Positions 16,193-56,974 of a stretch of DNA of 64,000 nt are shown here, piece by piece. The number at the start of each line of letters is the position of its first letter. The stretch's first letter is position 1. A program made the translations under genes and the position numbers. The DNA is from a phage, in the NCBI GenBank assembly GCA_022897995.1, contig GCA_022897995.1_4763.1. One strand, written 5' to 3'. The notes under the pieces were generated by a model, which was not told the DNA's origin, did no database searches, and saw only the letters and a program-made list of their open reading frames with translations.

Positions 16193-16254
16193 TTGACTTC
16201 CATAATCCATCATTGCATAATACACACCCATACCAAACGAAAGGAGAATCAAAG
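16193..16254 (+). promoter_or_regulatory. Early promoter cassette (TTGACT, CATAAT, conserved leader)
   Basis: TTGACT 16193-16198, 17 nt spacer, CATAAT 16216-16221, leader acacacccataccaaacgaaaggagaatcaa. Confidence 0.5.
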
Positions 16255-16527
16255 ATGAGCAACGAAAACAGCAAAGTGTTAGCAATTGCCGATAAAGTAG
16301 GTTACTGGAAATGTTGGGATGATATGGAGAAATTAGGCGGTCGATATCTCGATAACTTAGAGTTGCATTATTGCCAAGCGCGTAATGCAGAAGTTGCGGG
16401 AGTAGCAATTGAAGATATTCCGTCTAAGGTCTTCGGATTCTCTAAAGATGATACTTTAGAATATGTTTTCAAGGCTGTTATGGATCAAGCATGGGAAGAC
16501 GCAGAGACACGCGCTCTTGATTGGTGA
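16255..16527 (+). CDS. Hypothetical protein
   Basis: 90 aa from ATG 16255 at fixed distance from the cassette. Confidence 0.35.
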   Translation: MSNENSKVLAIADKVGYWKCWDDMEKLGGRYLDNLELHYCQARNAEVAGVAIEDIPSKVFGFSKDDTLEYVFKAVMDQAWEDAETRALDW

Positions 16528-16531
16528 TAAT

Positions 16532-16693
16532 ATGAACTGGTATAAAATTTGGAAAAATCAGGTGGAGGCTTATCTAGGGTATAAGCCCACCGACAAAGAA
16601 TTACTTGATGCAATGTACGAAGACGGCTTAAATCCGAAAGTAGCCGCGCAAGAATACGCGGAATGGGTGAAGGTCGAAAATAATTTAAAATAG
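16532..16693 (+). CDS. Hypothetical protein
   Basis: 53 aa from ATG 16532. Confidence 0.3.
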   Translation: MNWYKIWKNQVEAYLGYKPTDKELLDAMYEDGLNPKVAAQEYAEWVKVENNLK

Positions 16694-16696
16694 TTG

Positions 16697-16758
16697 TTGA
16701 CGTAAAGAAATGGGAGTAGTATTATACTCCCACACCGAAACGAAAGAAGGAGAATCAC
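16697..16758 (+). promoter_or_regulatory. PeSL-like promoter cassette
   Basis: TTGACG 16697-16702; GGGAGTA/TACTCCC 7 bp stem (16712-16731) with TATTAT -10 in the loop; conserved leader. Confidence 0.55.
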
Positions 16759-16971
16759 ATGAAATCTATTGAGCAAGTAGTAACAGAATTTATGAGCTAC
16801 GAAGGAAACCGCATCTTTGGACGTTCTCAAGTTCGCGAGATCGTAGAAGAAGTTGCGGGAGAGTTTGCGGAATCTGGTCACGTTATCACGCAAGAACGTA
16901 AAGAAGAAGCAGTAAGCCAGATCATGGCTATGCAGAAAATGCGTATTAATGCACGAGCGGGTAAAAATTAA
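16759..16971 (+). CDS. Hypothetical protein
   Basis: 70 aa ORF downstream of cassette. Confidence 0.35.
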   Translation: MKSIEQVVTEFMSYEGNRIFGRSQVREIVEEVAGEFAESGHVITQERKEEAVSQIMAMQKMRINARAGKN

Positions 16972-16978
16972 AAAGTAG

Positions 16979-17041
16979 TTGACACCGGATTATGGGAGTA
17001 GTAAGATACTCCCATCAAGACAAAACATTGAGGAATATATT
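16979..17041 (+). promoter_or_regulatory. PeSL-like promoter cassette
   Basis: TTGACA 16979-16984; GGGAGTA/TACTCCC stem 16994-17013 with TAAGAT in loop. Confidence 0.55.
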
Positions 17042-17842
17042 ATGAAAAACATTATCGCTGCTATCGTTCTTTCTGCTACTGCTTTCGGTGCTAATGCTGC
17101 GTCCTTTGATTGCGCTAAAGCTACTACCAAATCAGAGAAGTTTATTTGTGCTAATGAGTCAATCTCCGCACTGGATTCGAAACTTCATGAAGTATATGTT
17201 AAAGCTGTTAAGATTGATCCGTCTCTGAAACAAGAGCAACGCAACTGGAATAAAACTGTTCGTGATACAATGATCAATATCGGGCAGATTCAGCCACTGG
17301 AGGCTGTATATAACGCTCAAATCCAAAACTTGATGAATGTATTACCTAAAGAAGAAACCTCGTCAGAAAGCGATTCAGAGACTTCTGTGAAGGTTGAAGA
17401 AGAACAACCGAAACAGGAAGAAAAAGTGGTGGAAGAACAGAAGAAAGAAGAAAAAATCTCTGGATCTATCACTTACCAGTGCATTGCAAAATTTACATGG
17501 AAAATCATTGATGGTATTGAAACAGACAGCCGCAAAGATCCATTGTATGGAAACTCTACTTATGGCAACAAGGGCGGAAAGCTGAAAATGACCATGACCG
17601 AAGGTGAATTGTCTTCTTTCGTATATGTTGATGAGCGCGAAGTGTTTAAATCAAATCTGACACGCAGCAAACAATATAAAAATATGGTTGTTGGTATGAG
17701 CAAACCGGATGTAGCAGGATACTTCAACGAGTACAAAATGTGGGTAGGGGAAAACGATGAAATCCGCTTTGAAGTCATCGAGAAAGGTCGCATTAGCTAT
17801 GATTATGGTACTCAATATGTTTGCGAATATAAGAAGGGTTAA
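17042..17842 (+). CDS. Secreted protein with LprI/DUF1311-like N-terminal domain
   Basis: 266 aa from ATG 17042; signal peptide MKNIIAAIVLSATAFGANA; CAKATT..EKFICANESISALDSKL...QRNW pattern; acidic linker then C-terminal domain. Confidence 0.5.
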   Translation: MKNIIAAIVLSATAFGANAASFDCAKATTKSEKFICANESISALDSKLHEVYVKAVKIDPSLKQEQRNWNKTVRDTMINIGQIQPLEAVYNAQIQNLMNVLPKEETSSESDSETSVKVEEEQPKQEEKVVEEQKKEEKISGSITYQCIAKFTWKIIDGIETDSRKDPLYGNSTYGNKGGKLKMTMTEGELSSFVYVDEREVFKSNLTRSKQYKNMVVGMSKPDVAGYFNEYKMWVGENDEIRFEVIEKGRISYDYGTQYVCEYKKG

Positions 17843-18124
17843 ATGATGAAATTTAACAACATGAAGTTTAAAAAAGATTGGTGGGATGCTATGAGAGCTA
17901 ACGACCGAATCGGAATTGGAAAGGCAGAAAAGACAGTTGTTATTGTCAAGTATAAAGCGACGCAAGATCTTTTGATTAAGGAACTCATTCGAGCGGGTAA
18001 CTATCAAACACCGGAAGGTCTTATTGACATGATGGTTGATAACATGTATAGTGACGAACCACCAAACATTAAACAATATTACAAGCAGTATTACCGAAAG
18101 TGGCAGAAGTATAACCGAAAATAG
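17843..18124 (+). CDS. Hypothetical protein
   Basis: 93 aa ORF immediately after preceding stop. Confidence 0.35.
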   Translation: MMKFNNMKFKKDWWDAMRANDRIGIGKAEKTVVIVKYKATQDLLIKELIRAGNYQTPEGLIDMMVDNMYSDEPPNIKQYYKQYYRKWQKYNRK

Positions 18125-18147
18125 TTTGTTGACGTGAGGATTATATT

Positions 18148-18339
18148 ATGGTAATTTTTAATCGCGATGGTATCATAGTTCGGCAACACCCATTCCTTGA
18201 ATACTATCAGGTTGAACAATGGGGATACGGGGATTGCTCTCGATCATACGGTCAAAGCTGGGGATACCGTACAGTTTTTGAATCAACTAATATTAACAAA
18301 GTACGACAGAAAGTTTTAGAACTTCTTAACGATAAGTGA
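18148..18339 (+). CDS. Hypothetical protein
   Basis: 63 aa ORF with GAGGAttatattATG initiation context. Confidence 0.35.
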   Translation: MVIFNRDGIIVRQHPFLEYYQVEQWGYGDCSRSYGQSWGYRTVFESTNINKVRQKVLELLNDK

Positions 18340-20116: not shown

Positions 20117-20773
20117 TTATCTAATCCTTCCGAGGATTCTGGCAGATTGATTGCAAAGAGTATCTAAATTCTCAATGTCAATATCCGGTTTATTCTTCCA
20201 TGCAATGGAGATACTACCAGAATAGACATTATCGAGATTGAATATAGGGCAAGAATACATAAACCCTATATCGATACTCTCTAATTTCTTTTCTCTTGAT
20301 GGAATATACTGGAAATCTTTATCGGTAAAATATGATTTACCTAAAAGATGCCTACGATATTCTTCACTCGTTTTATTGATAGGGAATCCGCCTAAATTTT
20401 TTTCATCGATTGTGTGCGGTAGCTTTCCTTCATACGCCACCAAATCAACAAAATAGTTTAGGTTTTTCGGACGAAAACTAAAAACAGCAGAAAAATCGGC
20501 ATCAGCCGATACATGAACTATCTGTAACTGCTCCTGTGCTGCATTATCAAAATTGCGGTCTTTCTCTACCTGGAGAACGTGAGCATAAGTCTCATAACGA
20601 GTCTCTTTATACAATGCAAATAACTCGTTTTTACTATAAACGACAAATGCTAATATAGACAACACGACGGCAGCAAAAACACGAAGTACGAGCAACTCCG
20701 TGCTTTTAGTTGTGAAAATAGCGCGCAGGACATTTGAGATAGCAAAGTCTTTCCCTTTTTCAGAAACTTGCAT
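20117..20773 (-). CDS. t: Holin (T4 gene t homolog)
   Basis: 218 aa, same length as T4 T; blocks QLQIVHVSADADFSAVFSFRPKNLNYFVDLVAYEGKLP and YSCPIFNLDNVYSGSI match T4 T as recalled. Confidence 0.85.
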   Translation of the reverse strand: MQVSEKGKDFAISNVLRAIFTTKSTELLVLRVFAAVVLSILAFVVYSKNELFALYKETRYETYAHVLQVEKDRNFDNAAQEQLQIVHVSADADFSAVFSFRPKNLNYFVDLVAYEGKLPHTIDEKNLGGFPINKTSEEYRRHLLGKSYFTDKDFQYIPSREKKLESIDIGFMYSCPIFNLDNVYSGSISIAWKNKPDIDIENLDTLCNQSARILGRIR

Positions 20774-20806
20774 ATAATGCCCTAAGATAACTATGACAGT
20801 GTACTC

Positions 20807-21046: not shown

Positions 21047-21109
21047 AGCCGTTTCTCCTTAGTAGTTCCCTTCCGTGGGAGTTTTCCTTAATTCTTTTTA
21101 TAATTACGT

Positions 21110-21889: not shown

Positions 21890-21925
21890 AATTTATACTC
21901 CAAAGGGGGCAATGCCCCCTTGTTG

Positions 21926-33722: not shown

Positions 33723-34403
33723 ATGATCAGAAACCGTCTTCCTCCAGATCCAGATATGCGAATTAATGCTAAATCTGTGTATATGTTATATTGCATGATG
33801 AAAGCTCATATGAACGGGCGTTATGATTGCGTAAAATATAATTGGAGGATGCGGTTATCTGATGCCGCATTCAATAAACGCAGAGATAAGTATTATTTCG
33901 CAAAATTAGCGGAAAAGTACAATCTAAGAGAATTATACTTCCTATTCCTAAGCAATCTGGTAGCTAATACCGATGCATGGGTAGGTGAAATCACTGATGT
34001 TGACGCATACGGCTTTTATATGGAATACATAGGAAAGATAACCGATGCAGCAACAAGATTTGACGATGACGTTAAAAGTCTGGTATACTTCTCAGAGAAA
34101 CGCGGGGTTACTCTTAAAGAGCTAATTACATACAATCCCGCAACCGAAACTAGCGGTATATTTAAACTACTGCAAAATCGGATTATATCGTTTGAGTCGT
34201 TTATGTTGTTAGATAGCTTTCTAAATATAATCGACGAACACGACAAGGTAGCCAAAGACTTGATTTGGCAAACTTATAGTGTTAAAATGAAGGCGTACAA
34301 GAAACTACTTGTTATTGACGCCGCAAAAGCAAGAGCATTATTTGTTAAAGTAGTTAAAGAGTGTAAAGAAATATCTCAATTAAAAGCCGAAACAAATAGT
34401 TGA
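33723..34403 (+). CDS. 59: Helicase loader gp59
   Basis: 226 aa; blocks KSVYMLYCMMKAHMNGRYD, KYNWRMRLSDAAFNKRRDKYYF, LSNLVANTDAWVGEI, LLDSFLNIIDEHD match T4 gp59 as recalled. Confidence 0.85.
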   Translation: MIRNRLPPDPDMRINAKSVYMLYCMMKAHMNGRYDCVKYNWRMRLSDAAFNKRRDKYYFAKLAEKYNLRELYFLFLSNLVANTDAWVGEITDVDAYGFYMEYIGKITDAATRFDDDVKSLVYFSEKRGVTLKELITYNPATETSGIFKLLQNRIISFESFMLLDSFLNIIDEHDKVAKDLIWQTYSVKMKAYKKLLVIDAAKARALFVKVVKECKEISQLKAETNS

Positions 34404-34427
34404 CAAGTAAACTTAAATCTGTATAAT
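34400..34427 (+). promoter_or_regulatory. Strong promoter for gene 32 (TTGACA, 16 nt spacer, extended -10 TGTATAAT)
   Basis: TTGACA 34400-34405, TG at 34420-34421, TATAAT 34422-34427; overlaps the end of gene 59. Confidence 0.55.
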
Positions 34428-34463
34428 AGTCTAGTAAATTAATCAAAAGAAGGAATAGTGAAT

Positions 34464-35405
34464 ATGTTTAAACGCCAAGATTCTTCCAAACTGCAAGCTC
34501 AACTGGCCGCACTGAAAGGTGGCAACGGTTTCTCCAAAGAAGATCCGAAAGAGTGGAAGATTAAGACTGATGCAGCAGGTAACGGTGAAGCCCTGATTCG
34601 CTTCCTGCCGTCTAAGACAGAAGACGGTCTGCCGATTGTGAAACTGGTAAACCATTCCTTCAAAGTTAATGGAAAATGGTATTGGGAAAACTGCTCCAGC
34701 ACCCACGGTGATTTTGATTCTTGCCCTGTGTGCAAATATATTAACGAAAAAGACCTGTACAATACCGATAAAACAGAATGGCAACTGATTAAGCGTAAAG
34801 CGTCTTACTACGCAAACATTCTGGTACTGAAAGATCCTCAAGCACCAGAAAATGAAGGTAAGGTATTCAAATTCCGCTTCGGTCAGAAAATTTATGATAA
34901 GATCGTTGCGATGGTGAACGTGAATACCGACATGGGCGAAGTTCCGGTAGATGTAACTTGTGTGTTCTCTGGCGCTAACTTCCTCCTGAAAGCTAAGAAG
35001 GTTGATAAACACCAGAACTATGATGATTCTCGTTTCATGCAGCAATCACAGCTTCCGAAAATTGAAGACGAAGCATATCAGAAATATCTGATGGAAAACA
35101 TGGTTGATCTGGGTGAAATTGTAGCACCGAGCCAGTTTAAACCGTTTGATGAACTGGAAACCAAATTTAAGAAAACTATGGGCGTGTCTATGGTAGCGGG
35201 TGCTGCGGCTTCCAGTGCTGCGGCAGCGATTAACAGCCAGCTTGACGATTTTGATGCTCAGATGAATGCATTCGATGCTGGTATTACCGCAGCTAGCACG
35301 GCGGCAGATTCTTCCGCTGATGACCTGATGGCATCGCTGGATCTGGGTGGCGGTACTTCCTCCGCTTCTGATCTGGATGACCTGGATTCTCTGTTAGCGA
35401 TGTAA
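34464..35405 (+). CDS. 32: Single-stranded DNA-binding protein gp32
   Basis: 313 aa from ATG 34464; MFKRQ..., LIRFLPSK, zinc ligands in [13 protein letters not shown], acidic Ser/Asp-rich C-terminus; matches T4 gp32. Confidence 0.9.
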
Positions 35406-35416
35406 TGAATTTTACA

Positions 35417-35443
35417 GCCTCCCTTCGGGGAGGCTTTTTTATT
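35417..35443 (+). terminator. Rho-independent terminator after gene 32
   Basis: GCCTCCC-ttcg-GGGAGGC followed by TTTTTTATT. Confidence 0.65.
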
Positions 35444-35467
35444 GCCTAAAAATTTATGAAAAAGGTG

Positions 35468-35495
35468 TTGACATGTTGGCGAGGTAATGTATAAT
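35468..35495 (+). promoter_or_regulatory. Promoter (TTGACA, extended -10 TGTATAAT)
   Basis: TTGACA 35468-35473, 16 nt spacer, TATAAT 35490-35495. Confidence 0.5.
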
Positions 35496-35524
35496 GAACT
35501 AATCGAAACAACGGAGGATTAACA

Positions 35525-35854
35525 ATGTTTTTGAATGCTACCCTTTCCCAGAAAAGTGATAAAATCGAACTTCTGTATGTCATTGCTGATGTAGACGTAC
35601 AACGAAGAAATATAGATTTAAAAATTCACAAATATTATACTATGAGCGAATATCACGAAATCGAGATCCCACATAGTGTGTATCCCGCATTATTGTTAGG
35701 AAAAGGAAATCTAAGTGAATATTCTTTGAAAGTCATCAAAGATTCTAAATCAATGCTTGCTCATATGGAAAAAGATTTTCTTGATGAAGTTTCCGCGCTA
35801 GTTATTAAACTGAAAGAAGAAACAGCACCGCTTTTCATGGAACAAAAAGGTTGA
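35525..35854 (+). CDS. Hypothetical protein
   Basis: 109 aa ORF with RBS GGAGGA. Confidence 0.35.
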   Translation: MFLNATLSQKSDKIELLYVIADVDVQRRNIDLKIHKYYTMSEYHEIEIPHSVYPALLLGKGNLSEYSLKVIKDSKSMLAHMEKDFLDEVSALVIKLKEETAPLFMEQKG

Positions 35855-35878
35855 CTCCGAACACAGATGATGTATAAT
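35851..35878 (+). promoter_or_regulatory. Promoter (TTGACT, extended -10 TGTATAAT)
   Basis: TTGACT 35851-35856, 16 nt spacer, TATAAT 35873-35878. Confidence 0.5.
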
Positions 35879-35909
35879 ACAAACATCAAAACAAAGAGAG
35901 GATTATATT

Positions 35910-36239
35910 ATGTGGACAGTAGAACAAATCGTAGATGAAACAGTAAGTATTATCGCATGTGGCACTATTGAAGAATGCCTTAAAGCCGCTAACCGTGAAT
36001 GTATTACGGTTTATGAAGCCCGTCGCGGTGATGGTACTGTGTTAACAAGCGACTATCGATATGAACCAAAAATGATTACCTTTCGTTTTTGGGAAAATGG
36101 TGTTAATGTTGGGGTATCTCACTTAAAACGTTTTCGTGATTATTCTGACCGTTATTTCATCACACCGGATAACGGTCAAGAATTTAAGACAGCAATCACC
36201 GAAGAAAATGTAAACGAAAACTTCTTTAAACTGATTTGA
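35910..36239 (+). CDS. Hypothetical protein
   Basis: 109 aa ORF with GAGAGGAttatattATG context. Confidence 0.35.
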   Translation: MWTVEQIVDETVSIIACGTIEECLKAANRECITVYEARRGDGTVLTSDYRYEPKMITFRFWENGVNVGVSHLKRFRDYSDRYFITPDNGQEFKTAITEENVNENFFKLI

Positions 36240-38452: not shown

Positions 38453-40696
38453 ATGATTAAAAATGTTGTTAAGTCTTCCGGTCTGACTGTTCCGTTTGAA
38501 AAAGAAAAAGTAATGAAAATTCTGGAAGCGGCAGCCGAAGGTCATAACGTTGATCCATATGAATTGTTTGATATGGTTGAACCACTTCTGACAGAAGGTA
38601 TGTCTACCAATGATATCCAGAAAGTATTGATTAAGGTCGCCGCAGATAACATTACTGTAGAAACACCTGATTATCAATATGTAGCAAGTAACCTTGCAAT
38701 GTTCGCGCTTCGTAAATCAGTATACGGTCAATTCCAACCTATTGATTTTTATAGCCATATTGAGCGTAATATTGCAACCGGAAAATATGATCGCGAAATT
38801 CTGCAAAAGTATTCCCGCGAAGAAGTGGAATATCTGGAGAAATTCATCGACCATAAACTTGATTTTAAAATGACCTATGCTGGTGCGATGCAGTTAAAAG
38901 AGAAATATCTTGTTCAGGATCGCAGCACTAAGAAAATCATTGAAACACCGCAATTTGCGTATATGCTGATCGGTATGTGCTTGCATCAAGAAGAGACAGA
39001 AAATCGACTTGAACATGTGATTGATTTTTATAATGCTGTTGCGAATAAGCAAATCTCTCTTCCTACTCCGATTATGGCGGGTGTGCGTACTCCAACACGA
39101 CAATTTAGTTCGTGTGTGGTGATTGAAAGTGATGACTCATTGCAGGGTATTAATGAAACCGCAAATGCAATCATCAAGTATATTAGCAAGCGTGCTGGTA
39201 TCGGTATCAACGCTGGCATGATTCGCGCGGAAGGATCTAAGATCGGGCATGGTGAAGTTCGTCATACTGGTGTTATCCCATTCTGGAAGCATTTTCAGAC
39301 TGCCGTTAAGTCATGCTCACAAGGCGGTATTCGTGGCGGGGCAGCGACTCTCTATTACCCAATGTGGCATTTAGAATTTGAAAGTCTTATTGTGTTGAAG
39401 AATAACAAAGGGGTAGAAGACAACCGCATTCGCCATCTTGATTACGGCGTACAGATTAATAACCTGATGGTAGAGCGATTCCTTAAACGGGATTACATTA
39501 CTCTGTTTAGTCCAGATGTTGCGGGTGGCTTGTTGTGGGATCTGTACTTCCGAGATGAGGAAGGTTTCCGCCAGCTTTACGAAAAACTGGAAAAAGATCC
39601 GAGTGTTCGTAAAACTCGTGTTAAAGCCGAAGACCTATTTTTAGCGGTGGCAATTGAACGTTTTAACACTGGTCGAATCTATCCGGCGTTCACAGACAAC
39701 ATGAACAATCACGGGGCGTTTATTCGCAATGTAGCACCGATTAAACAATCTAACCTGTGTTGTGAAATTGCACTTCCTACTAAACCGATGGGTCGTGATG
39801 ATTCAGAGATCAGCCTATGTACTTTGGCAGCATATGTTTTAGGTAATTTCGATATCGAAAATATGGAAGAAGTAGAACGCATTGCTATGGTTATGGTGCG
39901 TGCACTTGACAACCTGTTAGATTATCAGGATTATCCTGTAGAACAAGCTCTGACAGCCAAAAAACGTCGCTCTCTGGGTGTTGGTGTGACTAACTTTGCA
40001 TCATATCTGGCGGATAATTTCTTCACATATGAAGACGCTAACGAGTTTACGCATAAAACGTTTGAACGCTTGCAATATGCTCTGATTAAGGCTAGTGTGC
40101 AACTGGCTAAAGAGAAGGGTGCTTGCGAACTGATGCACGAAACACGTTATGGACGCGGTGAACTGCCTATCGACTGGTACAAAAAGACAGTAGATGAACT
40201 GGTTGATCCGGTGTATGAGATGGATTGGGAAGAACTGCGCGAAGACCTGAAAAAATATGGCATTCGTAACAGTACGCTTTCGGCGCTGATGCCTTGTGAG
40301 TCGTCTTCTCAGGTGTCTAACAGCACAAACGGTATTGAACCGCCTCGCGGGATTGTATCGGTTAAAGGATCGAAAGAAGGGCAATTTAATCAGGTTATTC
40401 CGAACGTAGAGAATAATGCTGATGTTATTGACTTGCTTTGGACACTGATCAAGAAAGGTAACAAGCCTTATCTGACACTGGCAGCGATCATGCAGAAGTT
40501 TGTCGATCAGGCGATTAGTTCCAATACATCCTACGATCCAAGCACTTATAAGACTGGTAAAGTCGATATTGCTGATGTATTAGATGATATGTTGTTTGCT
40601 CAATATTACGGCCTCAAGACACTGTATTACGCTAACGTGCGTGATGGTGCTGATGGTACGGAAGACGCTAGCGAATGTTCATCTTGCAAACTGTAA
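38453..40696 (+). CDS. nrdA: Ribonucleotide reductase large subunit NrdA
   Basis: 747 aa; ATP-cone N-terminus, class I RNR blocks (PDYQYVASNLAMFALRK, SNLCCEI, C-terminal CxxC); no intron. Confidence 0.9.
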   Translation: MIKNVVKSSGLTVPFEKEKVMKILEAAAEGHNVDPYELFDMVEPLLTEGMSTNDIQKVLIKVAADNITVETPDYQYVASNLAMFALRKSVYGQFQPIDFYSHIERNIATGKYDREILQKYSREEVEYLEKFIDHKLDFKMTYAGAMQLKEKYLVQDRSTKKIIETPQFAYMLIGMCLHQEETENRLEHVIDFYNAVANKQISLPTPIMAGVRTPTRQFSSCVVIESDDSLQGINETANAIIKYISKRAGIGINAGMIRAEGSKIGHGEVRHTGVIPFWKHFQTAVKSCSQGGIRGGAATLYYPMWHLEFESLIVLKNNKGVEDNRIRHLDYGVQINNLMVERFLKRDYITLFSPDVAGGLLWDLYFRDEEGFRQLYEKLEKDPSVRKTRVKAEDLFLAVAIERFNTGRIYPAFTDNMNNHGAFIRNVAPIKQSNLCCEIALPTKPMGRDDSEISLCTLAAYVLGNFDIENMEEVERIAMVMVRALDNLLDYQDYPVEQALTAKKRRSLGVGVTNFASYLADNFFTYEDANEFTHKTFERLQYALIKASVQLAKEKGACELMHETRYGRGELPIDWYKKTVDELVDPVYEMDWEELREDLKKYGIRNSTLSALMPCESSSQVSNSTNGIEPPRGIVSVKGSKEGQFNQVIPNVENNADVIDLLWTLIKKGNKPYLTLAAIMQKFVDQAISSNTSYDPSTYKTGKVDIADVLDDMLFAQYYGLKTLYYANVRDGADGTEDASECSSCKL

Positions 40697-40706
40697 AAAA
40701 TAAGTG

Positions 40707-40766
40707 TTGACGCGGGGAGAAATCCCCGCTATAATTCAACCATCAAAAACAAGTGAGGATTTTATT
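40707..40766 (+). promoter_or_regulatory. PeSL-like promoter cassette
   Basis: TTGACG 40707-40712; GCGGGGA-gaaa-TCCCCGC stem 40712-40729; TATAAT 40730-40735. Confidence 0.55.
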
Positions 40767-40934
40767 ATGACCAAATTAAAATGTGTTGCTGTAGATTTTG
40801 AGCTAGCTGATAGCTTTGTTGTCGGTGATGAATATGATGCTCGACATGATGGGGCTTGCTACTACGTTGAGGATGAATACGGCGTAGAATGGGCTATTCT
40901 TCCTGATGATAAATGCTTTGAGGTTGTCGAATAA
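40767..40934 (+). CDS. Small acidic hypothetical protein (55 aa)
   Basis: ATG 40767 with GTGAGGAttttattATG context downstream of cassette. Confidence 0.3.
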   Translation: MTKLKCVAVDFELADSFVVGDEYDARHDGACYYVEDEYGVEWAILPDDKCFEVVE

Positions 40935-42923: not shown

Positions 42924-42934
42924 TGTTTGTTCAA

Positions 42935-42960
42935 AGTCGCCCATAGTGGCGACTTTTTTG
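42935..42960 (+). terminator. Rho-independent terminator
   Basis: AGTCGCC-catagt-GGCGACT followed by TTTTTTG. Confidence 0.6.
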
Positions 42961-42970
42961 TTATTGGGTG

Positions 42971-43023
42971 TTGACAATCGGATCTTGCCATAGCATAATA
43001 CCCCCATCGAAACGGAGGAACAT
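42971..43023 (+). promoter_or_regulatory. Early promoter cassette (degenerate stem)
   Basis: TTGACA 42971-42976, 17 nt spacer, CATAAT 42994-42999, leader acccccatcgaaacggagga. Confidence 0.5.
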
Positions 43024-43242
43024 ATGGAAACAGAAGAACAAGTCATTGCATATTTTCATCGTAAAAAGATGAAACTTAGAATCGAAAAACAGTACATCAA
43101 TCACTATATTGACCGAGTCCACTTAACAAGTACACCTTACCTATTCCGGTTGATAAACCCTCGAAAACGGTGGGATAAGTTGGATAGAAACACAAAAATA
43201 ATTGATAAGCTCACCCAATGGTGGAATGAATACAACAAGTAA
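43024..43242 (+). CDS. Hypothetical protein
   Basis: 72 aa ORF downstream of cassette. Confidence 0.35.
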   Translation: METEEQVIAYFHRKKMKLRIEKQYINHYIDRVHLTSTPYLFRLINPRKRWDKLDRNTKIIDKLTQWWNEYNK

Positions 43243-43249
43243 AAAGTAG

Positions 43250-43311
43250 TTGACACTGAATAACGGGGGTAGTAATATACCCCCATCGAAAAGAAACAAA
43301 GGAGAATCAAA
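43250..43311 (+). promoter_or_regulatory. PeSL-like promoter cassette
   Basis: TTGACA 43250-43255; GGGGGTA/TACCCCC stem 43265-43284 with TAATAT in loop. Confidence 0.55.
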
Positions 43312-43530
43312 ATGAAATTTACTTGCACCGACTCTATCAGCAAACACTTTGTAGTAGGCGAAGTATACGAATCTACTACCATTCGCCAGCGTGACCTGAT
43401 GGGTCGCCTTTACAATCAGCCAATATTCATTATTGGCGAAGAATTGTTCTACATTGAAAACCGTCCGTGGGTTGCTTTCAATAAACGAGGGCGCAAGGTA
43501 GCAAAATTCGAACTTGTCATTAAAAAGTAG
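43312..43530 (+). CDS. Hypothetical protein
   Basis: 72 aa ORF downstream of cassette. Confidence 0.35.
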   Translation: MKFTCTDSISKHFVVGEVYESTTIRQRDLMGRLYNQPIFIIGEELFYIENRPWVAFNKRGRKVAKFELVIKK

Positions 43531-43600
43531 TTGACAGCATGAAACGGGGGTAGTAATATACCCCCATCGAAACGAAACTAACTTACTAAGGAGTATCAAG
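43531..43600 (+). promoter_or_regulatory. PeSL-like promoter cassette (near-duplicate of 43250-43311)
   Basis: TTGACA 43531-43536; GGGGGTA/TACCCCC stem 43546-43565. Confidence 0.55.
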
Positions 43601-43999
43601 ATGATTAAATTTCAAACTCGCAAAGACGTTCTGGACTTCGTTAAAGTTTTCGGTTACGCTGCATTGCAACATGCAATGGACAAAATGACCATCTCCCCAG
43701 ATCAGACTATGCTGATCCGTATGGTTAAAGCAACCGCCTACAAAAACGACATTACCCTCTCAGAAATCAACGACGGCAATACTGTCCGCGAGGTAATTGT
43801 TTCTTTCGAATCACCGAAAATTGGCGGTTTTCATACCACGATGTTAGGTGAAATCACTGTCACTGTATACGGGCAAGGTGGCGGAGTGTTTACCGTCAAA
43901 GAAGCAATGGAAAACGGAACACTGAACAAAGAAAAACTGGAATTTGTCCTGAAAATCATCAAGGAGCGTAACGAAGCTCGCGATATTCTGGAAAGTTAA
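43601..43999 (+). CDS. Hypothetical protein
   Basis: 132 aa ORF with RBS AAGGAG. Confidence 0.4.
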   Translation: MIKFQTRKDVLDFVKVFGYAALQHAMDKMTISPDQTMLIRMVKATAYKNDITLSEINDGNTVREVIVSFESPKIGGFHTTMLGEITVTVYGQGGGVFTVKEAMENGTLNKEKLEFVLKIIKERNEARDILES

Positions 44000-48714: not shown

Positions 48715-48725
48715 TGATTTTAAAC

Positions 48726-50913: not shown

Positions 50914-51382
50914 TAATGAAGGGGCGAAAGCCCCTAAACCTAAAAAATTGTCAAAGAAAGAGCAACGCCAGATCCTGAAAATGAAATACGGTGGACGTTG
51001 TGCCTATTGTGGCGAGGAACTAGGGGATCGCTGGCACGCAGACCACATCAAACCAGTATTGCGACGCTCAAAAGTAGTCTATGATGAAAATGGACGAATT
51101 GCCCGTAATGATGATGGATCGTGGAAGTATAAGGTTGTAGGAATGCATAAACCGGAGCACGATATACTTGATAACATGAATCCGGCTTGTGTGCAATGCA
51201 ATCTTTACAAAAGCTGTATGGGCTTAGAATACTGGCGTAAGTGTATACGCGAGAACTTCCAGAAGTACATTCAACGTAACATGGGATTACGTGCGGCTAA
51301 ACGCTTTGGCTTGCTTTCAATCCACGATCAACCAGTAGAATTTTATTTCGAAAAGTACGAGCGCGAGCATCAAGAAAAATAA
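50906..51382 (+). CDS. HNH endonuclease
   Basis: 158 aa; CAYCGEELGDRWHADHIKP...NMNPACVQCN gives the CxxC...HxDH...N...CxxCN HNH pattern; overlaps ligase stop by 8 nt. Confidence 0.65.
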   Translation: MCDNEGAKAPKPKKLSKKEQRQILKMKYGGRCAYCGEELGDRWHADHIKPVLRRSKVVYDENGRIARNDDGSWKYKVVGMHKPEHDILDNMNPACVQCNLYKSCMGLEYWRKCIRENFQKYIQRNMGLRAAKRFGLLSIHDQPVEFYFEKYEREHQEK

Positions 51383-51396
51383 TTCAAAAAAAGTTG

Positions 51397-51459
51397 TTGA
51401 CAGGGGATCACCGATCCCCTATACTACACACATACCGAAACGAACTAGGAGAATCAATT
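51397..51459 (+). promoter_or_regulatory. PeSL-like promoter cassette
   Basis: TTGACA 51397-51402; perfect GGGGATC-acc-GATCCCC hairpin fills the spacer; TATACT 51420-51425; conserved leader. Confidence 0.6.
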
Positions 51460-51639
51460 ATGAACTTCAACGAAATCATCGCTAAAATCCGCTACAACGA
51501 AGAAACCATTGAACTGATGCAAAACAATATCACCAATGGTTATATGATTGCAGCGTCACAAGAAATCATTGATTTGACAGTAGCAGAAAATGCTCAGTTG
51601 AAACATCAACTTTCAACGGCTGGCGTGATTGTTATGTAA
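51460..51639 (+). CDS. Small hypothetical protein (59 aa)
   Basis: ATG 51460 at fixed distance from cassette. Confidence 0.3.
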   Translation: MNFNEIIAKIRYNEETIELMQNNITNGYMIAASQEIIDLTVAENAQLKHQLSTAGVIVM

Positions 51640-51656
51640 TAAAGAGAGGTGACTAA

Positions 51657-51989: not shown

Positions 51990-52046
51990 TGTAATATAAC
52001 AATCATCGGGAGGGGCAATACTCTCCCACAAATTGAGGATAATATT

Positions 52047-52355
52047 ATGGAACGTACCAATTTGTTTGTAACCGAACCTTTCGTTGAAGGCAACAAGAAC
52101 CTTGCTAATACGGTTATTCTTTACGAAGATTGGATCTTTTACATTGACGAGAATTTAGACGTATATTGTCGTCCAACTCCAAATGACTCATTCTATATCG
52201 AAGAAAACGATACACATAATCATTGGTATAACGGAAACGACGAAACAGACCTTGCTATTGTTCTCGAATCAGGTGTAGAATCGGAACATGCAGATGAAGT
52301 AGCGGATAAATTTGTACAATACGCATATAAAGATAAAGATGAGGATGAAGAATAA
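52047..52355 (+). CDS. Acidic hypothetical protein
   Basis: 102 aa, highly D/E-rich with poly-acidic C-terminus. Confidence 0.35.
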   Translation: MERTNLFVTEPFVEGNKNLANTVILYEDWIFYIDENLDVYCRPTPNDSFYIEENDTHNHWYNGNDETDLAIVLESGVESEHADEVADKFVQYAYKDKDEDEE

Positions 52356-52362
52356 AAAGTTG

Positions 52363-52425
52363 TTGACAGGGGATCGGTGATCCCCTATACTACACACATA
52401 CCAACGAGATATAGGAGAATCAAAA
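52363..52425 (+). promoter_or_regulatory. PeSL-like promoter cassette
   Basis: TTGACA 52363-52368; GGGGATC-ggt-GATCCCC hairpin; TATACT 52386-52391. Confidence 0.6.
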
Positions 52426-52593
52426 ATGTTCCAGACTAAAGCAGAATGCGAAGCATACATTGTAGCAAACCACGGTGAAGACTACCTGAAATTCGATATC
52501 GTAGTAGCACAGAAGATCACCGGAATGGTTGCAAAATATCTGGGTGTTAAAGAAGGTTACTATCCAAGCAACGCACCAGAAATTAACAAATAA
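52426..52593 (+). CDS. Small hypothetical protein (55 aa)
   Basis: ATG 52426 downstream of cassette; below track cutoff. Confidence 0.3.
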   Translation: MFQTKAECEAYIVANHGEDYLKFDIVVAQKITGMVAKYLGVKEGYYPSNAPEINK

Positions 52594-52607
52594 TTTTATA
52601 AAAAGTG

Positions 52608-52676
52608 TTGACAGGGGAGACACCCTCCCCTATAATATACACATCGAAACGAGATACCAATTAGGAGAATCAAACA
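52608..52676 (+). promoter_or_regulatory. PeSL-like promoter cassette
   Basis: TTGACA 52608-52613; GGGGAG-acacc-CTCCCC hairpin; TATAAT 52631-52636. Confidence 0.6.
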
Positions 52677-52928
52677 ATGGCTAACATCGAAACCGCAAAG
52701 AAAATCGCTAAAGACCTGAACGTTAAAGGCTTCCGTAAACTGAAATTACAGCGTGTACGCTACACCATCGGCAAACAGTGCTCTTTCATGAGCGAAGAAG
52801 TTGCTAACAGCCTCATCGATAACCTGATCGCGGCTGGCTGGGAAGTTACGGATCTGAAAACTTGCAGCGAACTGGCTAACAAAGGTCTTTTAGATTCTGT
52901 TACTATCAAACCAATGGGGGCAGCGTGA
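52677..52928 (+). CDS. Hypothetical protein
   Basis: 83 aa ORF downstream of cassette. Confidence 0.35.
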   Translation: MANIETAKKIAKDLNVKGFRKLKLQRVRYTIGKQCSFMSEEVANSLIDNLIAAGWEVTDLKTCSELANKGLLDSVTIKPMGAA

Positions 52929-53641
52929 AACAAAAATTAATATTCTGCAACTTTGACGGATCGGGGATAATGGGGCTAGAATGGGCTAAAGCAGGTCATA
53001 AGGTGATCTGCTTTAATGCTGACGATGGCGACCACGGTACATACAAAAAGTATAATACCAGATTTGAACATCCAAACATTACCTATGTAAACACATGGAT
53101 TGATTTGAACTGGCTGGAAAGAGCAATGGACCTTGAATGGGGGAAACCGGATATTATCTTTGCATTCCCACCGTGCACAAATTTAGCTGTTAGTGGCGCT
53201 GCACACTTTGAACGAAAGAAACGAGAGCAAGGACCATTGATTCAAGTTCATGATGTGAGGGCAGCTAAAATAACCGCTTATTTGGGTGAATGGCTAGGAG
53301 TTCCCTACATGATAGAGAATCCTGTAAGCGTTATCTCTAGCATGTGGCGTAAGCCTGATTACATGTTCCATCCGTGGGAATATGGTGGTTATTTGCCGGA
53401 AGATGATAAACATCCTACGTTTCCTGAGTATATCGCCGCCCGTGATATGTACCCGAAAAAGACTTGCTTATGGACCGGACAAGGCTTTATAATGCCAGAA
53501 AAGAAACCGTTGCCGATTAATAAAGGGTACAGTAAACAGCATTCTAAGCTAGGCGGGAAAGGAACCAGAACAAAGACTATCAGGTCACTTACCCCGCGAG
53601 GATTTGCAAAGGCAGTATTTGAAGCCAATAAGGATCTATAA
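52925..53641 (+). CDS. Truncated DNA C5-cytosine methyltransferase-like protein
   Basis: 238 aa (GTG start overlapping previous stop); motif I-like FDGSGIMG, motif IV-like FAFPPCTNLAVSG (catalytic Cys), motif VI-like MIENPV; no target-recognition domain. Confidence 0.45.
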   Translation: MKQKLIFCNFDGSGIMGLEWAKAGHKVICFNADDGDHGTYKKYNTRFEHPNITYVNTWIDLNWLERAMDLEWGKPDIIFAFPPCTNLAVSGAAHFERKKREQGPLIQVHDVRAAKITAYLGEWLGVPYMIENPVSVISSMWRKPDYMFHPWEYGGYLPEDDKHPTFPEYIAARDMYPKKTCLWTGQGFIMPEKKPLPINKGYSKQHSKLGGKGTRTKTIRSLTPRGFAKAVFEANKDL

Positions 53642-53970
53642 TGAGATTGTTTAAGTATTCTCTAACGTCAAATTACGATAAACAAGGTCATTGCATCCGT
53701 TGCCCTAATTGCCATAGCCATAACATTGAAAGCAAGATCACCGATCATATTGATGGACTTTGGTCGCCAGCAAGCGAGATAGAATACTATTGCGCTGATT
53801 GTGGAATTGTAGTAGCATATTGGGCATACGGATCATATGATCCTTACTTCCAGATGGGAGAGCGTTCAATCCCTGCTCTTATCTGGAGAATTAAGAACAA
53901 TATCCGGCATTCATGGGATGAGTTCTTAAAAGATATTGATTTACGTGATGATCCATTCAGGAGACTATAA
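53641..53970 (+). CDS. Zinc-ribbon protein
   Basis: 109 aa; CIRCPNC...CADCG four-Cys pattern; ATGA overlap with preceding gene. Confidence 0.35.
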   Translation: MRLFKYSLTSNYDKQGHCIRCPNCHSHNIESKITDHIDGLWSPASEIEYYCADCGIVVAYWAYGSYDPYFQMGERSIPALIWRIKNNIRHSWDEFLKDIDLRDDPFRRL

Positions 53971-53971
53971 C

Positions 53972-54487
53972 ATGAACAGATTAACGCCTAAACGCCGTTA
54001 CTATACCAATACTAAAAACTTTGTCATCTCTGTTTATGAGGCGTGGTTAGAAGATGGATATATCAACATGAACCCAGATTATCAGCGTCCTTTAGTATGG
54101 GACACCGAAAACAAACGTATGTTTATCGAAAACCTGATTAATGATTTTCCGGTTGGTGCTATCGCAATGGCTAAGATTGATGATGGCTCTCGCTATGAGA
54201 TCGAAATCGTGGACGGTAAACAGCGTTTAAACGCAATATTCTCTTTCATGAAGGATGAGTTTAGCATTGCTGGTAATGATGATTCTATGCTGTATTACAG
54301 CGATTTTACGCCAGCAGAAAAGCGACGTTTCCGAAATCTCGGACTACCAGCGATCATGATGGAAGAGAGCACACGAGAAGACCGATTAGAGTATTTCTAC
54401 AAAACAAACTTTTTCGGTGTGCCTCAATCGGAAGAACATCGCCAGCACGTAATTGCCCTATTGCAAGATGAGCAATTAAAAAAATAA
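53972..54487 (+). CDS. DUF262/ParB-like nuclease domain protein
   Basis: 171 aa from ATG 53972; NPDYQRPLVW...FPVGAIAM...IVDGKQRLNAIFSF resembles the DUF262 N-terminal domain of GmrSD-type enzymes. Confidence 0.45.
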   Translation: MNRLTPKRRYYTNTKNFVISVYEAWLEDGYINMNPDYQRPLVWDTENKRMFIENLINDFPVGAIAMAKIDDGSRYEIEIVDGKQRLNAIFSFMKDEFSIAGNDDSMLYYSDFTPAEKRRFRNLGLPAIMMEESTREDRLEYFYKTNFFGVPQSEEHRQHVIALLQDEQLKK

Positions 54488-54498
54488 CTAAAAAGTTG

Positions 54499-54563
54499 TT
54501 GACATAACAGAGGGTGTATATCATAATACACCCATACCGAAACGAACTACTAAGGAGTATCAA
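54499..54563 (+). promoter_or_regulatory. PeSL-like promoter cassette
   Basis: TTGACA 54499-54504; GGGTGTAT/ATACACCC 8 bp stem 54512-54533 with CATAAT in loop. Confidence 0.55.
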
Positions 54564-54776
54564 ATGGCTAACATCGAAATCATCATTACCGACGTAACTT
54601 ATGACCGCATCAACGAAATCGGTACTGCATTACTGGAAGATGGAACAACTCGTACCATCAACTACGCAGAATACGTTGAAATGCGCGGTTGGATTAAACG
54701 AGTAGGAAAATATATCCTGATTGAAAAAGACTATTCAGGATACACCTTAGAGCAATTGCTTGATGGTGCATTATAA
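54564..54776 (+). CDS. Hypothetical protein
   Basis: 70 aa ORF downstream of cassette. Confidence 0.35.
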   Translation: MANIEIIITDVTYDRINEIGTALLEDGTTRTINYAEYVEMRGWIKRVGKYILIEKDYSGYTLEQLLDGAL

Positions 54777-54781
54777 TAAAA

Positions 54782-54804
54782 AGGGGGCGTTAAGCCCCTT
54801 TTTC
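54782..54804. terminator. Terminator-like hairpin
   Basis: A-run, GGGGC-gttaa-GCCCC, T-run. Confidence 0.45.
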
Positions 54805-54844
54805 ATAAATATAGGTTTATAGGTTATCAACTAGAGGATATAAA

Positions 54845-56896
54845 ATGTTTAACTTAGAAATCGACGATCTAATGATTGAATCTTTCGAGAAATGGCTGTT
54901 GACGGAAGAGGAAGAAAACTTTGGCAGTATTGCTCCGGTACAGTGCTTAAAGCCTAAGCAGAATCCTAAACAGCTTTTTGCAGTACAGACACGCGATAAA
55001 GATGTGATTGTCCGTCTTTGCAACTTCACCAACAAAACACCTAAAATTGTTCGTATGGGTGACAAGACCGCACATGTTGTACTGTGCGAAATGAACAAAA
55101 GCGGTCGTATTGTACAGCTTAAAAATGGTCTAGGCGATAACCCGATTGCAGTTATGGCAAGTGCTTTTGATGTGGTTATGGAAACAGCCCGTAAAGCGCA
55201 ATTAGACGCTGTTATGTTCCGTTTTAACGTATCCCGCATGAAAGGTAAGACCGAACTGGTTAAGCGCGTTATAGAGCGTTTGGTGCGTCGTACACCGAAG
55301 TTCGAAGTATTCCAGCAGGAAGTAATGACCAGCAAAAAGATCGCTTTGGTTGTTGTCAAGCGTCGCGGGATGGCGATTGATAAGATTAAAGGGATTAAAC
55401 TTGATGATTCCCTGTTCACTAAAGTAGAAAGTGATTTAGGTGATCGCTGGGTATCTAAGGCTACTGGCGAATCTCTGACTAAAGATGAAGCGTATGCGGC
55501 TAGCCTTGCATCAGAAGAAGAACGAAACGCGGAAGCGGAACAACGTGTAGCGGCTAAATCTCGTTTGACTAAAGAAGAAATGCTGAAAACTCAAGCGACC
55601 TATAACAGCGACTATGTGAATCATCCAGAAAAAATTAATCTTAAACCGGAAGAAGATATCACCGAAGCCGAACCTAAGAAACAGTTTAATACTCTGATTG
55701 ATCGTCAAGCCTTAGAACGTTCAACCGCTCGTTCTCTGAATGACTGGACAAGTGATATTATCACTCGCTATGGTTTCATGCGTACTATTTTTGAAAGCGA
55801 AGCCGATGCAAAATACGCAGTAAGCGAACTGGTAAAAGTTCAGGACCAATATGATCCGTTGTCTGCGGAAGTTATCGCAGCATCAATCAAACGCTTAAAA
55901 GAAATCATGAATGAAGAAGTGTTTGAAAACAAGATCACCGCCCTAGCAATGGATCGAGTAGACCAGTCTATGCCAGCAGATGTAAAGGCTGAAATGTTGC
56001 GTAGTCACATCACGCAGATTAAAACCGATGCCCTACGTAATGTTGCTTCCGGTATGTTTGAAGCAATTGCTAGCAACATGGGTGAAATGATGGCAGATAT
56101 TGATCTTGATCTGCCGGGCGCGGAAGGTTTTGTGTTGAGCGAGTATGCCGATGCAGCATACATCAATATGAACAACTTCCTAACCGACCGTAAGCTGGAA
56201 GAGTTTGACGGCATCGCAGATCCAGAAGAATTGGTCAAGATGTGCGATGCACTGGATAATGCCTTCTCTAACTATGGCGTTAAACTTGATCCGGGTACTA
56301 TTCTGTATCGTGGTATGGACTTCCGGTCTCAAATGTGGGAAACTGCACGTAAGCAAAAAGCGTTTTACTTTAAAAACTATGTGAGCACTTCCCTTGCACC
56401 TAACATTTTTGGCGGCTGGAATGCAAACGTGGCTAGTGCCGTTGCTGGTGTTGATTCTATGGCTGGATCTCGCGGTGAAGGTGGCGCTAATGTTGCTTTC
56501 TCCATTGCTGGCGCGGAAAACATCCCTGTATTGCCAGTAGGTAACAAGGCATTTGCTTACAAAGAATGCGAGATTTTACTTCCTCGCGGCGTTGTGTTAT
56601 CCTTTGATACGGTAACTCGTGCCACGGCATCGACGGATTCACAAGAAACTTATTACATTGAGGCACATATTATGAACAAAAATGAACTGGCAGCATTACA
56701 AGAATCTGGCGAGATGATCGCGGACGGTGATGCATTCATCCGTGAAGGTGTTGTTAAACCTGCTTCTGACCTGTCTTTCTCCAGCTTTATTACCGAAGCT
56801 AAAACCGAACGTAAGAAAGCAGATAAGGCAACTCTACGTCAGCTTATCGCTGATCTGGTATCTGTAGACGCAATGCCAGATAAATTTAAAATGTAA
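54845..56896 (+). CDS. alt: ADP-ribosyltransferase Alt
   Basis: 683 aa (T4 Alt is 682); ART triad LYRG...FYFKNYVSTSLAPNIFGGW...ECEILLPRG; position between 30 and the baseplate block. Confidence 0.85.
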   Translation: MFNLEIDDLMIESFEKWLLTEEEENFGSIAPVQCLKPKQNPKQLFAVQTRDKDVIVRLCNFTNKTPKIVRMGDKTAHVVLCEMNKSGRIVQLKNGLGDNPIAVMASAFDVVMETARKAQLDAVMFRFNVSRMKGKTELVKRVIERLVRRTPKFEVFQQEVMTSKKIALVVVKRRGMAIDKIKGIKLDDSLFTKVESDLGDRWVSKATGESLTKDEAYAASLASEEERNAEAEQRVAAKSRLTKEEMLKTQATYNSDYVNHPEKINLKPEEDITEAEPKKQFNTLIDRQALERSTARSLNDWTSDIITRYGFMRTIFESEADAKYAVSELVKVQDQYDPLSAEVIAASIKRLKEIMNEEVFENKITALAMDRVDQSMPADVKAEMLRSHITQIKTDALRNVASGMFEAIASNMGEMMADIDLDLPGAEGFVLSEYADAAYINMNNFLTDRKLEEFDGIADPEELVKMCDALDNAFSNYGVKLDPGTILYRGMDFRSQMWETARKQKAFYFKNYVSTSLAPNIFGGWNANVASAVAGVDSMAGSRGEGGANVAFSIAGAENIPVLPVGNKAFAYKECEILLPRGVVLSFDTVTRATASTDSQETYYIEAHIMNKNELAALQESGEMIADGDAFIREGVVKPASDLSFSSFITEAKTERKKADKATLRQLIADLVSVDAMPDKFKM

Positions 56897-56913
56897 TTTT
56901 TAAGAAATAATGG

Positions 56914-56974
56914 TTGACTCAAACGGGGACTAGTTTTATACTAGCCCCGTTTTCTGTTATATGGGAGGTTTAAA
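56914..56974 (+). promoter_or_regulatory. PeSL-like promoter cassette
   Basis: TTGACT 56914-56919; ACGGGGACTAG/CTAGCCCCGT stem; TATACT 56937-56942. Confidence 0.5.

Follow-up and report, generated by a model that had tools for sequence, protein, structure and literature searches.

What are the closely similar promoter units that recur between the small early genes of contig GCA_022897995.1_4763.1 (GenBank assembly GCA_022897995.1), and what might they do for the phage that carries them? The 64,000 nucleotides (nt) of this phage DNA analysed here (the window) had been read in a first-pass annotation as holding 15 copies of a modular early-promoter cassette with an embedded stem-loop. We consider it very likely that these cassettes are the promoter-early stem-loops (PeSLs) already published for RB49 and phi1, that they would insulate small genes from incoming transcription and that they would act as joints for recombination; this high confidence is a joint one that covers the three parts together, and the identification is a re-identification, not a discovery. 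Megablast of three stretches against the GenBank phages places the source of the window as an RB49-like T4-type coliphage of the genus Krischvirus, with 96-97% identity to RB49, Phi1, JSE, Brandy and others and no identical phage in that collection. The + strand of the window corresponds to the minus strand of the RB49 record, and the early and replication genes (including gene 61, rIIA, rIIB, gene 52, rnh, gene 32, nrdA, nrdB, rnlA, gene 30 and alt) run along it from left to right, with the tail-fibre genes (20117-31371) and the baseplate genes (58313 onward) on the opposite strand.

All 15 starts listed in the first-pass annotation coincide with the initial T of a TTGAC(A/T/G) -35 hexamer, and the inverted repeats that it quoted at 51403, 52369, 16712, 16994, 43265, 43546, 40712 and 54512 each lie where it had placed them; the extent that it gave for the family (16193-56974) leaves out three of its own copies, at 2836, 8729 and 9097. 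The plain sigma-70 consensus is not enriched over chance in the window (115 hits versus about 72 expected in a lenient scan, and 54 versus 48 with a built-in scanner), and an extended position-weight model was therefore used instead, consisting of a 26-nt upstream/-35 block and a 17-nt -10/discriminator block, with a strong copy defined as one scoring at least 16 bits. This model returned 16 strong sites, all on the + (early-gene) strand, which comprise the 15 listed starts and one further strong copy at 35468 that had been missed, where 40 second-order Markov randomisations of both strands led us to expect 0 sites. Leave-one-out scores were 17-43 bits for 14 of the 15 listed copies, the exception being 8729 (4.4 bits), which has a 16-bp spacer, and a repeat finder run without prior information retrieved the cassette family independently (as its families D1, D2, D5, D6 and D9). 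The cassette signal resides in the extended unit, not in the two hexamers alone. When the same model was applied to fetched regions of RB49, Phi1, Cognac and Brandy, the total for the five genomes, the window included, came to 91 instances (71 unique cores), every one on the early strand.

Each unit begins at the stop codon of the gene before it and ends at the ATG of the small early gene that follows (Table 1). The upstream block is A/T-rich, with a motif such as (T)AAAAAGT(T/A)G immediately before the -35 in most copies, often includes the upstream stop codon itself and supplies 17-28 bits of the cassette score. All 16 strong copies have at most one mismatch in the -35 (TTGACA) and at most two in the TATAAT-like -10, separated by a spacer of 17 bp in 14 copies and 16 bp in two, and the C/A-rich discriminator and leader (ACACACATACCGAAACGA or ACCCCCATCGAAACGA) lead to a strong Shine-Dalgarno sequence (AGGAGAATCAA or GAGGATT) and an ATG that in all 16 opens an open reading frame (ORF) homologous to an annotated RB49 gene. 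The ATG had been described as standing at a fixed distance; the interval from the -10 to the ATG varies from 24 to 41 nt, and only the spacing between Shine-Dalgarno sequence and ATG (10-14 nt) is roughly constant. Of the 71 unique promoter spacers, 31 contain GATC, the Dam site, versus about 0.1 expected per spacer; it lies mostly within GGGGATC..GATCCCC stems or at +9 to +10 from the start of the -35. Examples are the spacers at 51403-51419, 52369-52385 and 9105-9109 and, in the relatives, loci L001-L006.

A significant embedded hairpin is present in 12 of the 16 strong cores (z -2.3 to -5.7 against dinucleotide shuffles), and the same 12 rank under the 5th percentile among 45-nt windows drawn at random from the genome. 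The stem fills the spacer in four copies (40707, 51397, 52363 and 52608) and straddles the -10, with the hexamer in its loop, in eight (9097, 16697, 16979, 43250, 43531, 54499, 8729 and 56914), the last two having long stems with a U-tract. At 16193, 35468 and 42971 no stem is embedded; instead, a classical terminator hairpin with its T-run lies 15-50 nt before the -35, so the earlier description of a GC-rich repeat within the spacer or across the -10 holds for 12 copies and fails for these three and for 2836. The full shape of stem plus U-tract is seen in five copies (8729, 56914, 16193, 35468 and 42971). Stems are mostly 7-9 bp long, the longest being about 15 bp at 8729, and no Rfam 15 family matched anywhere in the window at gathering score. 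The hairpins end, on their 3' side, at +23 to +41 from the start of the -35, and the predicted +1, placed at the seventh base past the -10, lies near +35. Since the 5' arm is upstream of the predicted +1 in every embedded stem, these stems would form solely in RNA that enters from upstream and never in the transcript of the cassette itself. RNA processing at the hairpin, which the first-pass annotation had entertained, is unsupported because a hairpin placed upstream of or across the predicted +1 would be absent from the cassette's own transcript.

PeSLs are defined by a sigma-70 consensus, an AT-rich upstream region, a polyG..polyC stem-loop in one of five positions, a Shine-Dalgarno sequence with ATG, and a preference for hyperplastic regions (Arbiol, Comeau, Kutateladze, Adamia and Krisch, 2010, Genome Biol Evol, PMC2839356), and there are 51-52 of them per genome (PMC2839356). 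The window copies come from the same genus and have the same architecture, the same placement before small ORFans and the same association with indels, and we see no difference in kind. A stem-loop is found in 15 of the 16 strong copies (four in the spacer, eight across the -10 and three upstream of the -35), and many cores equal the published ones or differ from them at one or two bases; orthologous sites of RB49, Phi1, Cognac and Brandy have identical or nearly identical cores. The PeSL-like label of the first-pass annotation thus stands: the source is an RB49-like Krischvirus, all published sequence features of PeSLs are present, and several cores are identical or nearly so to those of RB49 and Phi1. 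The copy at 52363 is the ortholog of RB49 PeSL206/205 (44 of 46 core bases identical), the promoter of which reached about 13,000 Miller units (PMC2839356), and both 51397 and 52363 carry the GGGGATC stem type of PeSL211/210, the stem-loop of which cut lacZ expression about as much as rrnB T1 (PMC2839356). The hyperplastic region from the HNH gene to alt covers 3.4 kb in the window versus about 9.7 kb in RB49, and there are therefore fewer PeSL copies there than in RB49.

Comparable arrangements are known elsewhere. PeSL-like promoter-terminator motifs have been described in T4/PST and KVP40/nt-1 (Comeau, Arbiol and Krisch, 2014, PMC4122927), where, as at the flanks of T-even internal-protein genes, an early promoter with a stem-loop likewise borders variable genes and modular shuffling has been proposed. 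The elements of the T-even internal-protein locus are analogs and not homologs according to those authors, with T4-type early promoters and weaker, AT-richer stems, whereas true homology links the window copies to the RB49 set. The original authors themselves drew a comparison with integron gene cassettes and phage 'morons', which are likewise small, self-contained and often orphan genes that move with their expression signals. For RB49/phi1, unlike integrons, no integrase or attC-type site is known apart from the usual T4-type recombination machinery, and exchange appears to proceed via short cassette homology; for morons, unlike the cassettes, movement by way of their own regulatory sequences is not assumed.

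Is the hairpin itself what is maintained? Among the 71 unique cores of the five genomes, 45 have a hairpin of -8 kcal or better, in seven registers and with about 20 stem sequences whose loops measure 3-6 nt; what recurs is a hairpin as such, not one sequence. Among 21 -10-straddling stems one pair occurs as A-U in eight, G-C in four and G.U in two. A covariation score of 0.205 versus 0.128 in shuffles was reached by one of 500 shuffles, and a control slid by -2 also paired at 68%, the alignment mixing two registers; as related sequences inflate tests of this kind, it lends modest support to selection on the stem. Because the registers were mixed, the stems were reanalysed by register and by counting stem versus loop substitutions at orthologous sites. 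The first-pass annotation had staked its reading on conservation of the stems in relatives, and they are conserved at orthologous sites in all four, a hairpin being present in every relative wherever the flanks align. Among orthologous variants, substitutions were found at 3 of 262 stem positions versus 10 of 75 loop positions (Fisher P = 3e-5); two of the three stem substitutions yield G.U pairs and the third opens a terminal A-U, so that stems evolve about 12 times slower than their own loops. The loop of the hairpin at 52613-52631 has changed completely relative to its RB49/Cognac ortholog (ACACC to GATAA) on the same stem, and that at 52368-52386 reads ACC in Phi1 in place of GGT with the stem intact. 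Cognac carries, at the 54499 site, a stem of the spacer type versus the -10-straddling stem of the window, so the class of hairpin can switch at an orthologous site and a hairpin persist. These comparisons support selection acting on the hairpin itself. The earlier argument from compensatory changes holds in its conclusion, through the stem and loop counts and the A-U/G.U/G-C series; strict covariation is limited, and many of the stems compared are non-homologous and lie in different registers.

The second part of the question concerns gene exchange. Thirteen of the 16 strong copies lie within or at the edge of clusters of variable small ORFs, and local blastn against the relatives revealed 15 junctions of collinearity, of which seven overlap the footprint of a strong cassette (binomial P about 1e-5) and three more overlap weaker promoter copies, for a total of ten. 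Of the 25 relatives listed in the initial database search, 23 had matches whose left end lay at query positions 370-390 or 1354-1355, where cassettes 51397 and 52363 have their upstream edges. Five RB49 gene blocks that are absent from the window have their junctions at cassettes (Table 1). The module between 35468 and 35851 has been swapped, with an ORF of 109 amino acids (35525-35854) in the window versus the roughly 1.4-kb ORF240 endonuclease gene between gene 32 and ORF239 in RB49 and Phi1; Brandy is arranged as the window is, and Cognac has a 330-bp ORF plus a larger ORF.

Two junctions are legible at base level. The cassette at 51397 is a chimera whose left flank is that of Phi1 PeSL212/210 and whose right flank is that of PeSL210/209, giving a single cassette where Phi1 has two around ORFan210; Brandy shares this single chimeric arrangement. 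Its topology is the one predicted for excision of the ORFan210 mini-circle, which has been detected by inverse polymerase chain reaction (PMC2839356). ORF186 is missing both in the window and in Cognac. In the window the switch from '187/186' to '186/185' sequence falls in the shared TAAAAAGTTGTTGACA upstream/-35 block and the -10-straddling stem is kept; in Cognac the spacer-type stem is kept and the switch falls in the shared CATACCGAAACGAA leader. ORF186 was thus lost by two independent deletions between the same pair of cassettes, with the two conserved blocks as the homology patches. The crossovers map to the upstream/-35 and leader blocks and not to the stems. Taken with the seven breakpoints, the comparison of flanking ORFs at the ORFan210 and ORF186 junctions supports a role of the cassettes as recombination joints, as the first-pass annotation had suggested.

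The mechanism that we favour combines these properties. A near-consensus sigma-70 promoter with a UP-like A/T-rich stretch would serve unmodified host RNA polymerase immediately upon infection, and the stem-loop would, in RNA reading in from the preceding gene, terminate or attenuate incoming transcription, such that each small gene would be an insulated, self-expressing module. Termination has been demonstrated by reporter assay in the literature for one spacer-type stem; it is probable for the copies with a U-tract and uncertain for -10-straddling stems that have none. The upstream/-35 and leader blocks, being nearly identical among copies, would serve phage homologous recombination as short homology patches between which genes could be deleted, inserted or swapped. 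The exchange itself is shown by the comparative breakpoints, but the enzymology behind it is presumed.

Several observations weigh against this account. The strong copy at 2836 has no hairpin at all, and 10 of the 12 embedded stems have no U-tract (their tails read, for example, ATCGAAAC or TATACTAC). A generic terminator scan of 40000-58000 flagged no embedded + strand stem and, among the cassette hairpins, only the upstream one at 42933; taken as a class, embedded stems depart from the canonical intrinsic terminator. Both are GC-rich stem-loops that close a transcription unit, and the U-tract is present in five window copies and missing in ten embedded stems; unlike a canonical terminator, every embedded stem overlaps the promoter that follows, the -10 lying in its loop or right after it. 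Folding energies pointed to a sense-strand bias when hairpins were chosen on the sense strand, and this bias disappeared with a symmetric choice, which leaves the strand of selection without support from that quarter. The uniform binomial null for the breakpoints is generous, since indels are tolerated mostly in intergenic DNA, and 5 of the 15 junctions have no cassette (1-686, 5537-5658, 17443-17812, 52926-52941 and the tip of the tail fibre), so the assertion that cassettes mark every hyperplastic region goes too far; in these regions they are a major but not the sole route of change. No mapping of transcription starts or 3' ends in a Krischvirus, nor any more recent transcriptomic study of the genus or of PeSLs, was found in the literature reached.

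A rival view, for which the missing U-tracts speak, is that the stems, chiefly the -10-straddling ones without a U-tract, are mainly 3'-end barriers and not terminators, and would shield the preceding message against 3'-to-5' exonucleases once it has been terminated or processed elsewhere. E. coli and T4 are well known to stabilise mRNA by means of stable 3' hairpins, none of the stems without a U-run looks terminator-like on the + strand in the scanned region, and with a single spacer-type stem assayed, a lower lacZ value does not separate termination from other effects. However, the stem in that assay has no U-tract either and acted like a strong terminator, and three copies have classical terminators in the equivalent place, suggesting that the required function is termination. 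We regard a mainly protective role as unlikely, though it deserves to be taken seriously. The two roles can coexist, and a protective one fits within the insulation model. A related reading, to which we would give a rather small chance, is that the -10-straddling stems without a U-tract (9097, 16697, 16979, 43250, 43531 and 54499) are not terminators and could be 3'-end stabilisers, pause or hand-over sites at which incoming polymerase is cleared right at the next promoter, or single-stranded DNA structures seeding recombination; the cassette family would then consist of two functionally distinct hairpin classes.

Could the palindromes instead be protein sites, either operators for a repressor of early transcription or targets of a dedicated recombination protein? 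Many stems share runs of G and C and overlap core promoter elements, GATC is frequent in the spacers as noted above, and the original authors speculated that GGGG...CCCC is the target of a recombination protein (PMC2839356). Yet about 20 stem sequences in seven registers with loops of 3-6 nt offer no common recognition sequence or fixed position, which leaves the operator role put forward in the first-pass annotation without a basis. Loops have been replaced with pairing kept, a pattern that fits a structure better than a sequence-specific site, the crossovers that we mapped fall outside the stems, and the published crossover of an RB49 mini-circle, which lay within a loop (PMC2839356), shows no fixed site. 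A protein site is therefore very improbable. Operator and cruciform readings were both rejected on the diversity of the stems and on their shortness (mostly 7-9 bp). It is hardly credible, finally, that the hairpins are incidental and that the copies resemble each other merely because one strong promoter was duplicated recently. Within a region the copies are indeed very similar (51388 and 52354 are 85% alike over 75 nt), and kinship inflates shuffle-based tests of covariation, but unrelated stems occupy the same promoters, 12 of the 16 cores are far more stable than their shuffles, and the rate difference between stems and loops would be unexpected. The stemless copies at 16193, 35468 and 42971 have a terminator hairpin just upstream, and Cognac keeps a hairpin of the other class at the 54499 site.

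With insulated promoter modules and recombination joints as the preferred explanation, the finding confirms current knowledge and does not change it, the feature having already been described for this phage group. Few concrete mechanisms have been put forward for the shuffling of accessory genes in large virulent phages without breaking essential operons, and PeSLs are among them; the window adds a further natural isolate that fits the PeSL model, with the genomic footprint of the published ORFan210 excision and the same gene, ORF186, lost twice via different crossover points in one cassette pair. For the annotation of Krischvirus genomes, the cassettes predict early transcription units and likely sites of indels. 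Novelty might hide only in the -10-straddling class and in the conserved leader. The latter, A/C-rich (AUACCGAAACGA or AUCGAAACGA) and followed by a GGAG Shine-Dalgarno sequence, could be a functional RNA element beyond its part as a homology patch, for example a context for cleavage by RegB; the divergent RegB of RB49 cleaves GGAG-type Shine-Dalgarno sequences (PMC3014915). If RNA processing does occur in the cassette, we would expect the leader GGAG to be a likelier site than the hairpin.

Table 1. Strong cassette copies and weaker promoter candidates in the window, named by the first base of the -35 (z, folding energy of the core against dinucleotide shuffles; absent, RB49 genes missing from the window at that junction).
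Copy	Span	Strand	Promoter and leader	Hairpin	ATG	z	Remarks
2836	2816..2896	+	AT-rich upstream, TTGACA, 17-bp spacer, AATAAT, leader ACACACATACCAAC, Shine-Dalgarno AAGGAG	none (minimum free energy 0)	2894 (srd homolog)	+0.3	37 bits
8729	8709..8793	+	16-bp spacer, TATAAT	8736-8771 (-22.5 kcal), -10 in loop, then TTTTCTTTT; full intrinsic-terminator shape	8791	-5.7	after gene 39; kept in RB49
9097	9077..9158	+		-10-straddling, GGGGATAT-n6-ATGTCCCC at 9106-9134, one U.G wobble	9156	-2.3	
16193	16152..16257	+	AT-rich stretch, TTGACT	none embedded; upstream terminator 16152-16174 + T-run	16255	+0.6	upstream-terminator subclass
16697	16677..16761	+	TTGACG	-10-straddling, (T)GGGAGTA-n6-TACTCCC(A) at 16711-16732	16759	-3.6	
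16979	16959..17044	+		-10-straddling, ATGGGAGTA-n6-TACTCCCAT at 16992-17015	17042	-3.4	synteny breakpoint 16964-16981; ORF263 absent
35468	35416..35527	+	TTGACA, 16-bp spacer, TATAAT	upstream terminator AGCCTCCC-TTCG-GGGAGGCT at 35416-35435 + T-run	35525		29 bits; after gene 32; new here; left edge of replaced module
40707	40687..40769	+	TTGACG, TATAAT	spacer-filling, GCGGGGA-GAAA-TCCCCGC at 40712-40729	40767	-4.4	after nrdA; identical in 4 relatives
42971	42933..43026	+	shortest leader, 24 nt	upstream terminator 42933-42956 + T-run	43024		upstream-terminator subclass
43250	43230..43314	+		-10-straddling, GGGGGTA-n6-TACCCCC at 43265-43284	43312	-3.2	one pair G.U in RB49/Phi1 orthologs (TACTCCC)
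43531	43511..43603	+		-10-straddling, GGGGGTA-n6-TACCCCC at 43546-43565	43601	-3.2	synteny breakpoint 43518-43612; ORF226 absent
51397	51377..51462	+		spacer, (A)GGGGATC-ACC-GATCCCC(T) at 51402-51420	51460	-4.6	chimera; ORF210-211 absent
52363	52343..52428	+		spacer, GGGGATC-GGT-GATCCCC at 52368-52386	52426		ORF192-204, about 4 kb, absent
52608	52588..52679	+	perfect TTGACA-17-TATAAT	spacer, GGGGAG-n5-CTCCCC at 52613-52631	52677	-3.6	
54499	54479..54566	+		-10-straddling, GGGTGTAT-n6-ATACACCC at 54512-54533	54564	-4.1	ORF186 absent
56914	56894..56977	+	TTGACT, TATACT	56921-56952 spanning -10, flanks AAA and TTTTCTGTT (terminator shape)	56975	-5.3	after alt; identical in 4 relatives
2267 (weaker)	2247..2331	+	TTGACG, TATTAT	GCCTCC..GGAGGC at 2296-2319 + T6, directly after -10; predicted +1 inside 5' arm (downstream-of-(-10) type)	2329 (modB)		12 bits
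34400 (weaker)	34380..34466	+	TTGACA-16-TATAAT	none			13 bits; before gene 32; 'early RB49 promoter' annotated in NC_005066
35851 (weaker)	35831..35912	+	TTGACT-16-TATAAT	none significant	35910		right edge of replaced module (breakpoint 35844)

Two further promoter-like sites, at 6809 and 51969, were seen only in the lenient consensus scan. The site at 51969 (region 51992-52049) scores below the threshold of the position-weight model and has a hairpin at 52008-52027 (GGGAGGG..CTCTCCC) downstream of its predicted start, which would sit in its own leader, unlike in all strong copies; its status is doubtful and it may not be a promoter. Canonical terminators with a GC-rich stem and T-run that are not attached to a cassette promoter occur on the + strand at 44006-44025, 45625-45640 and 48726-48744.

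A second translation-initiation module, (GT)GAGGATTATATTATG, is repeated before several genes (9792-9827, 18120-18155, 35882-35917, 40739-40774 and 48769-48804; repeat family D3), with variants near 17027 and 52030, and the breakpoint of the ORF207 indel (52033-52049) lies inside one module of this type, suggesting that conserved ribosome-binding regions may also act as recombination patches. A 58-nt direct repeat (86% identical; 5480-5537 and 5658-5715), which comprises a gene end, a Shine-Dalgarno sequence and a start codon, flanks the 5537|5658 indel relative to RB49 (small ORF 5534-5710), a case of gene gain or loss without a cassette. The leftmost 686 bases (ORF 139-693, 184 amino acids) have no counterpart at the corresponding place in RB49 and no cassette, and the distal tail-fibre/adhesin region (21100-24174) is strongly diverged (73% identity or no match), also with no cassette. 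Within gene 34 (minus strand, 27631-31371), five copies of a 37-nt unit lie at 29301-29937 with spacings of 108, 120, 252 and 120 nt (repeat family D4), and presumably encode a periodic protein repeat of the proximal tail-fibre subunit.

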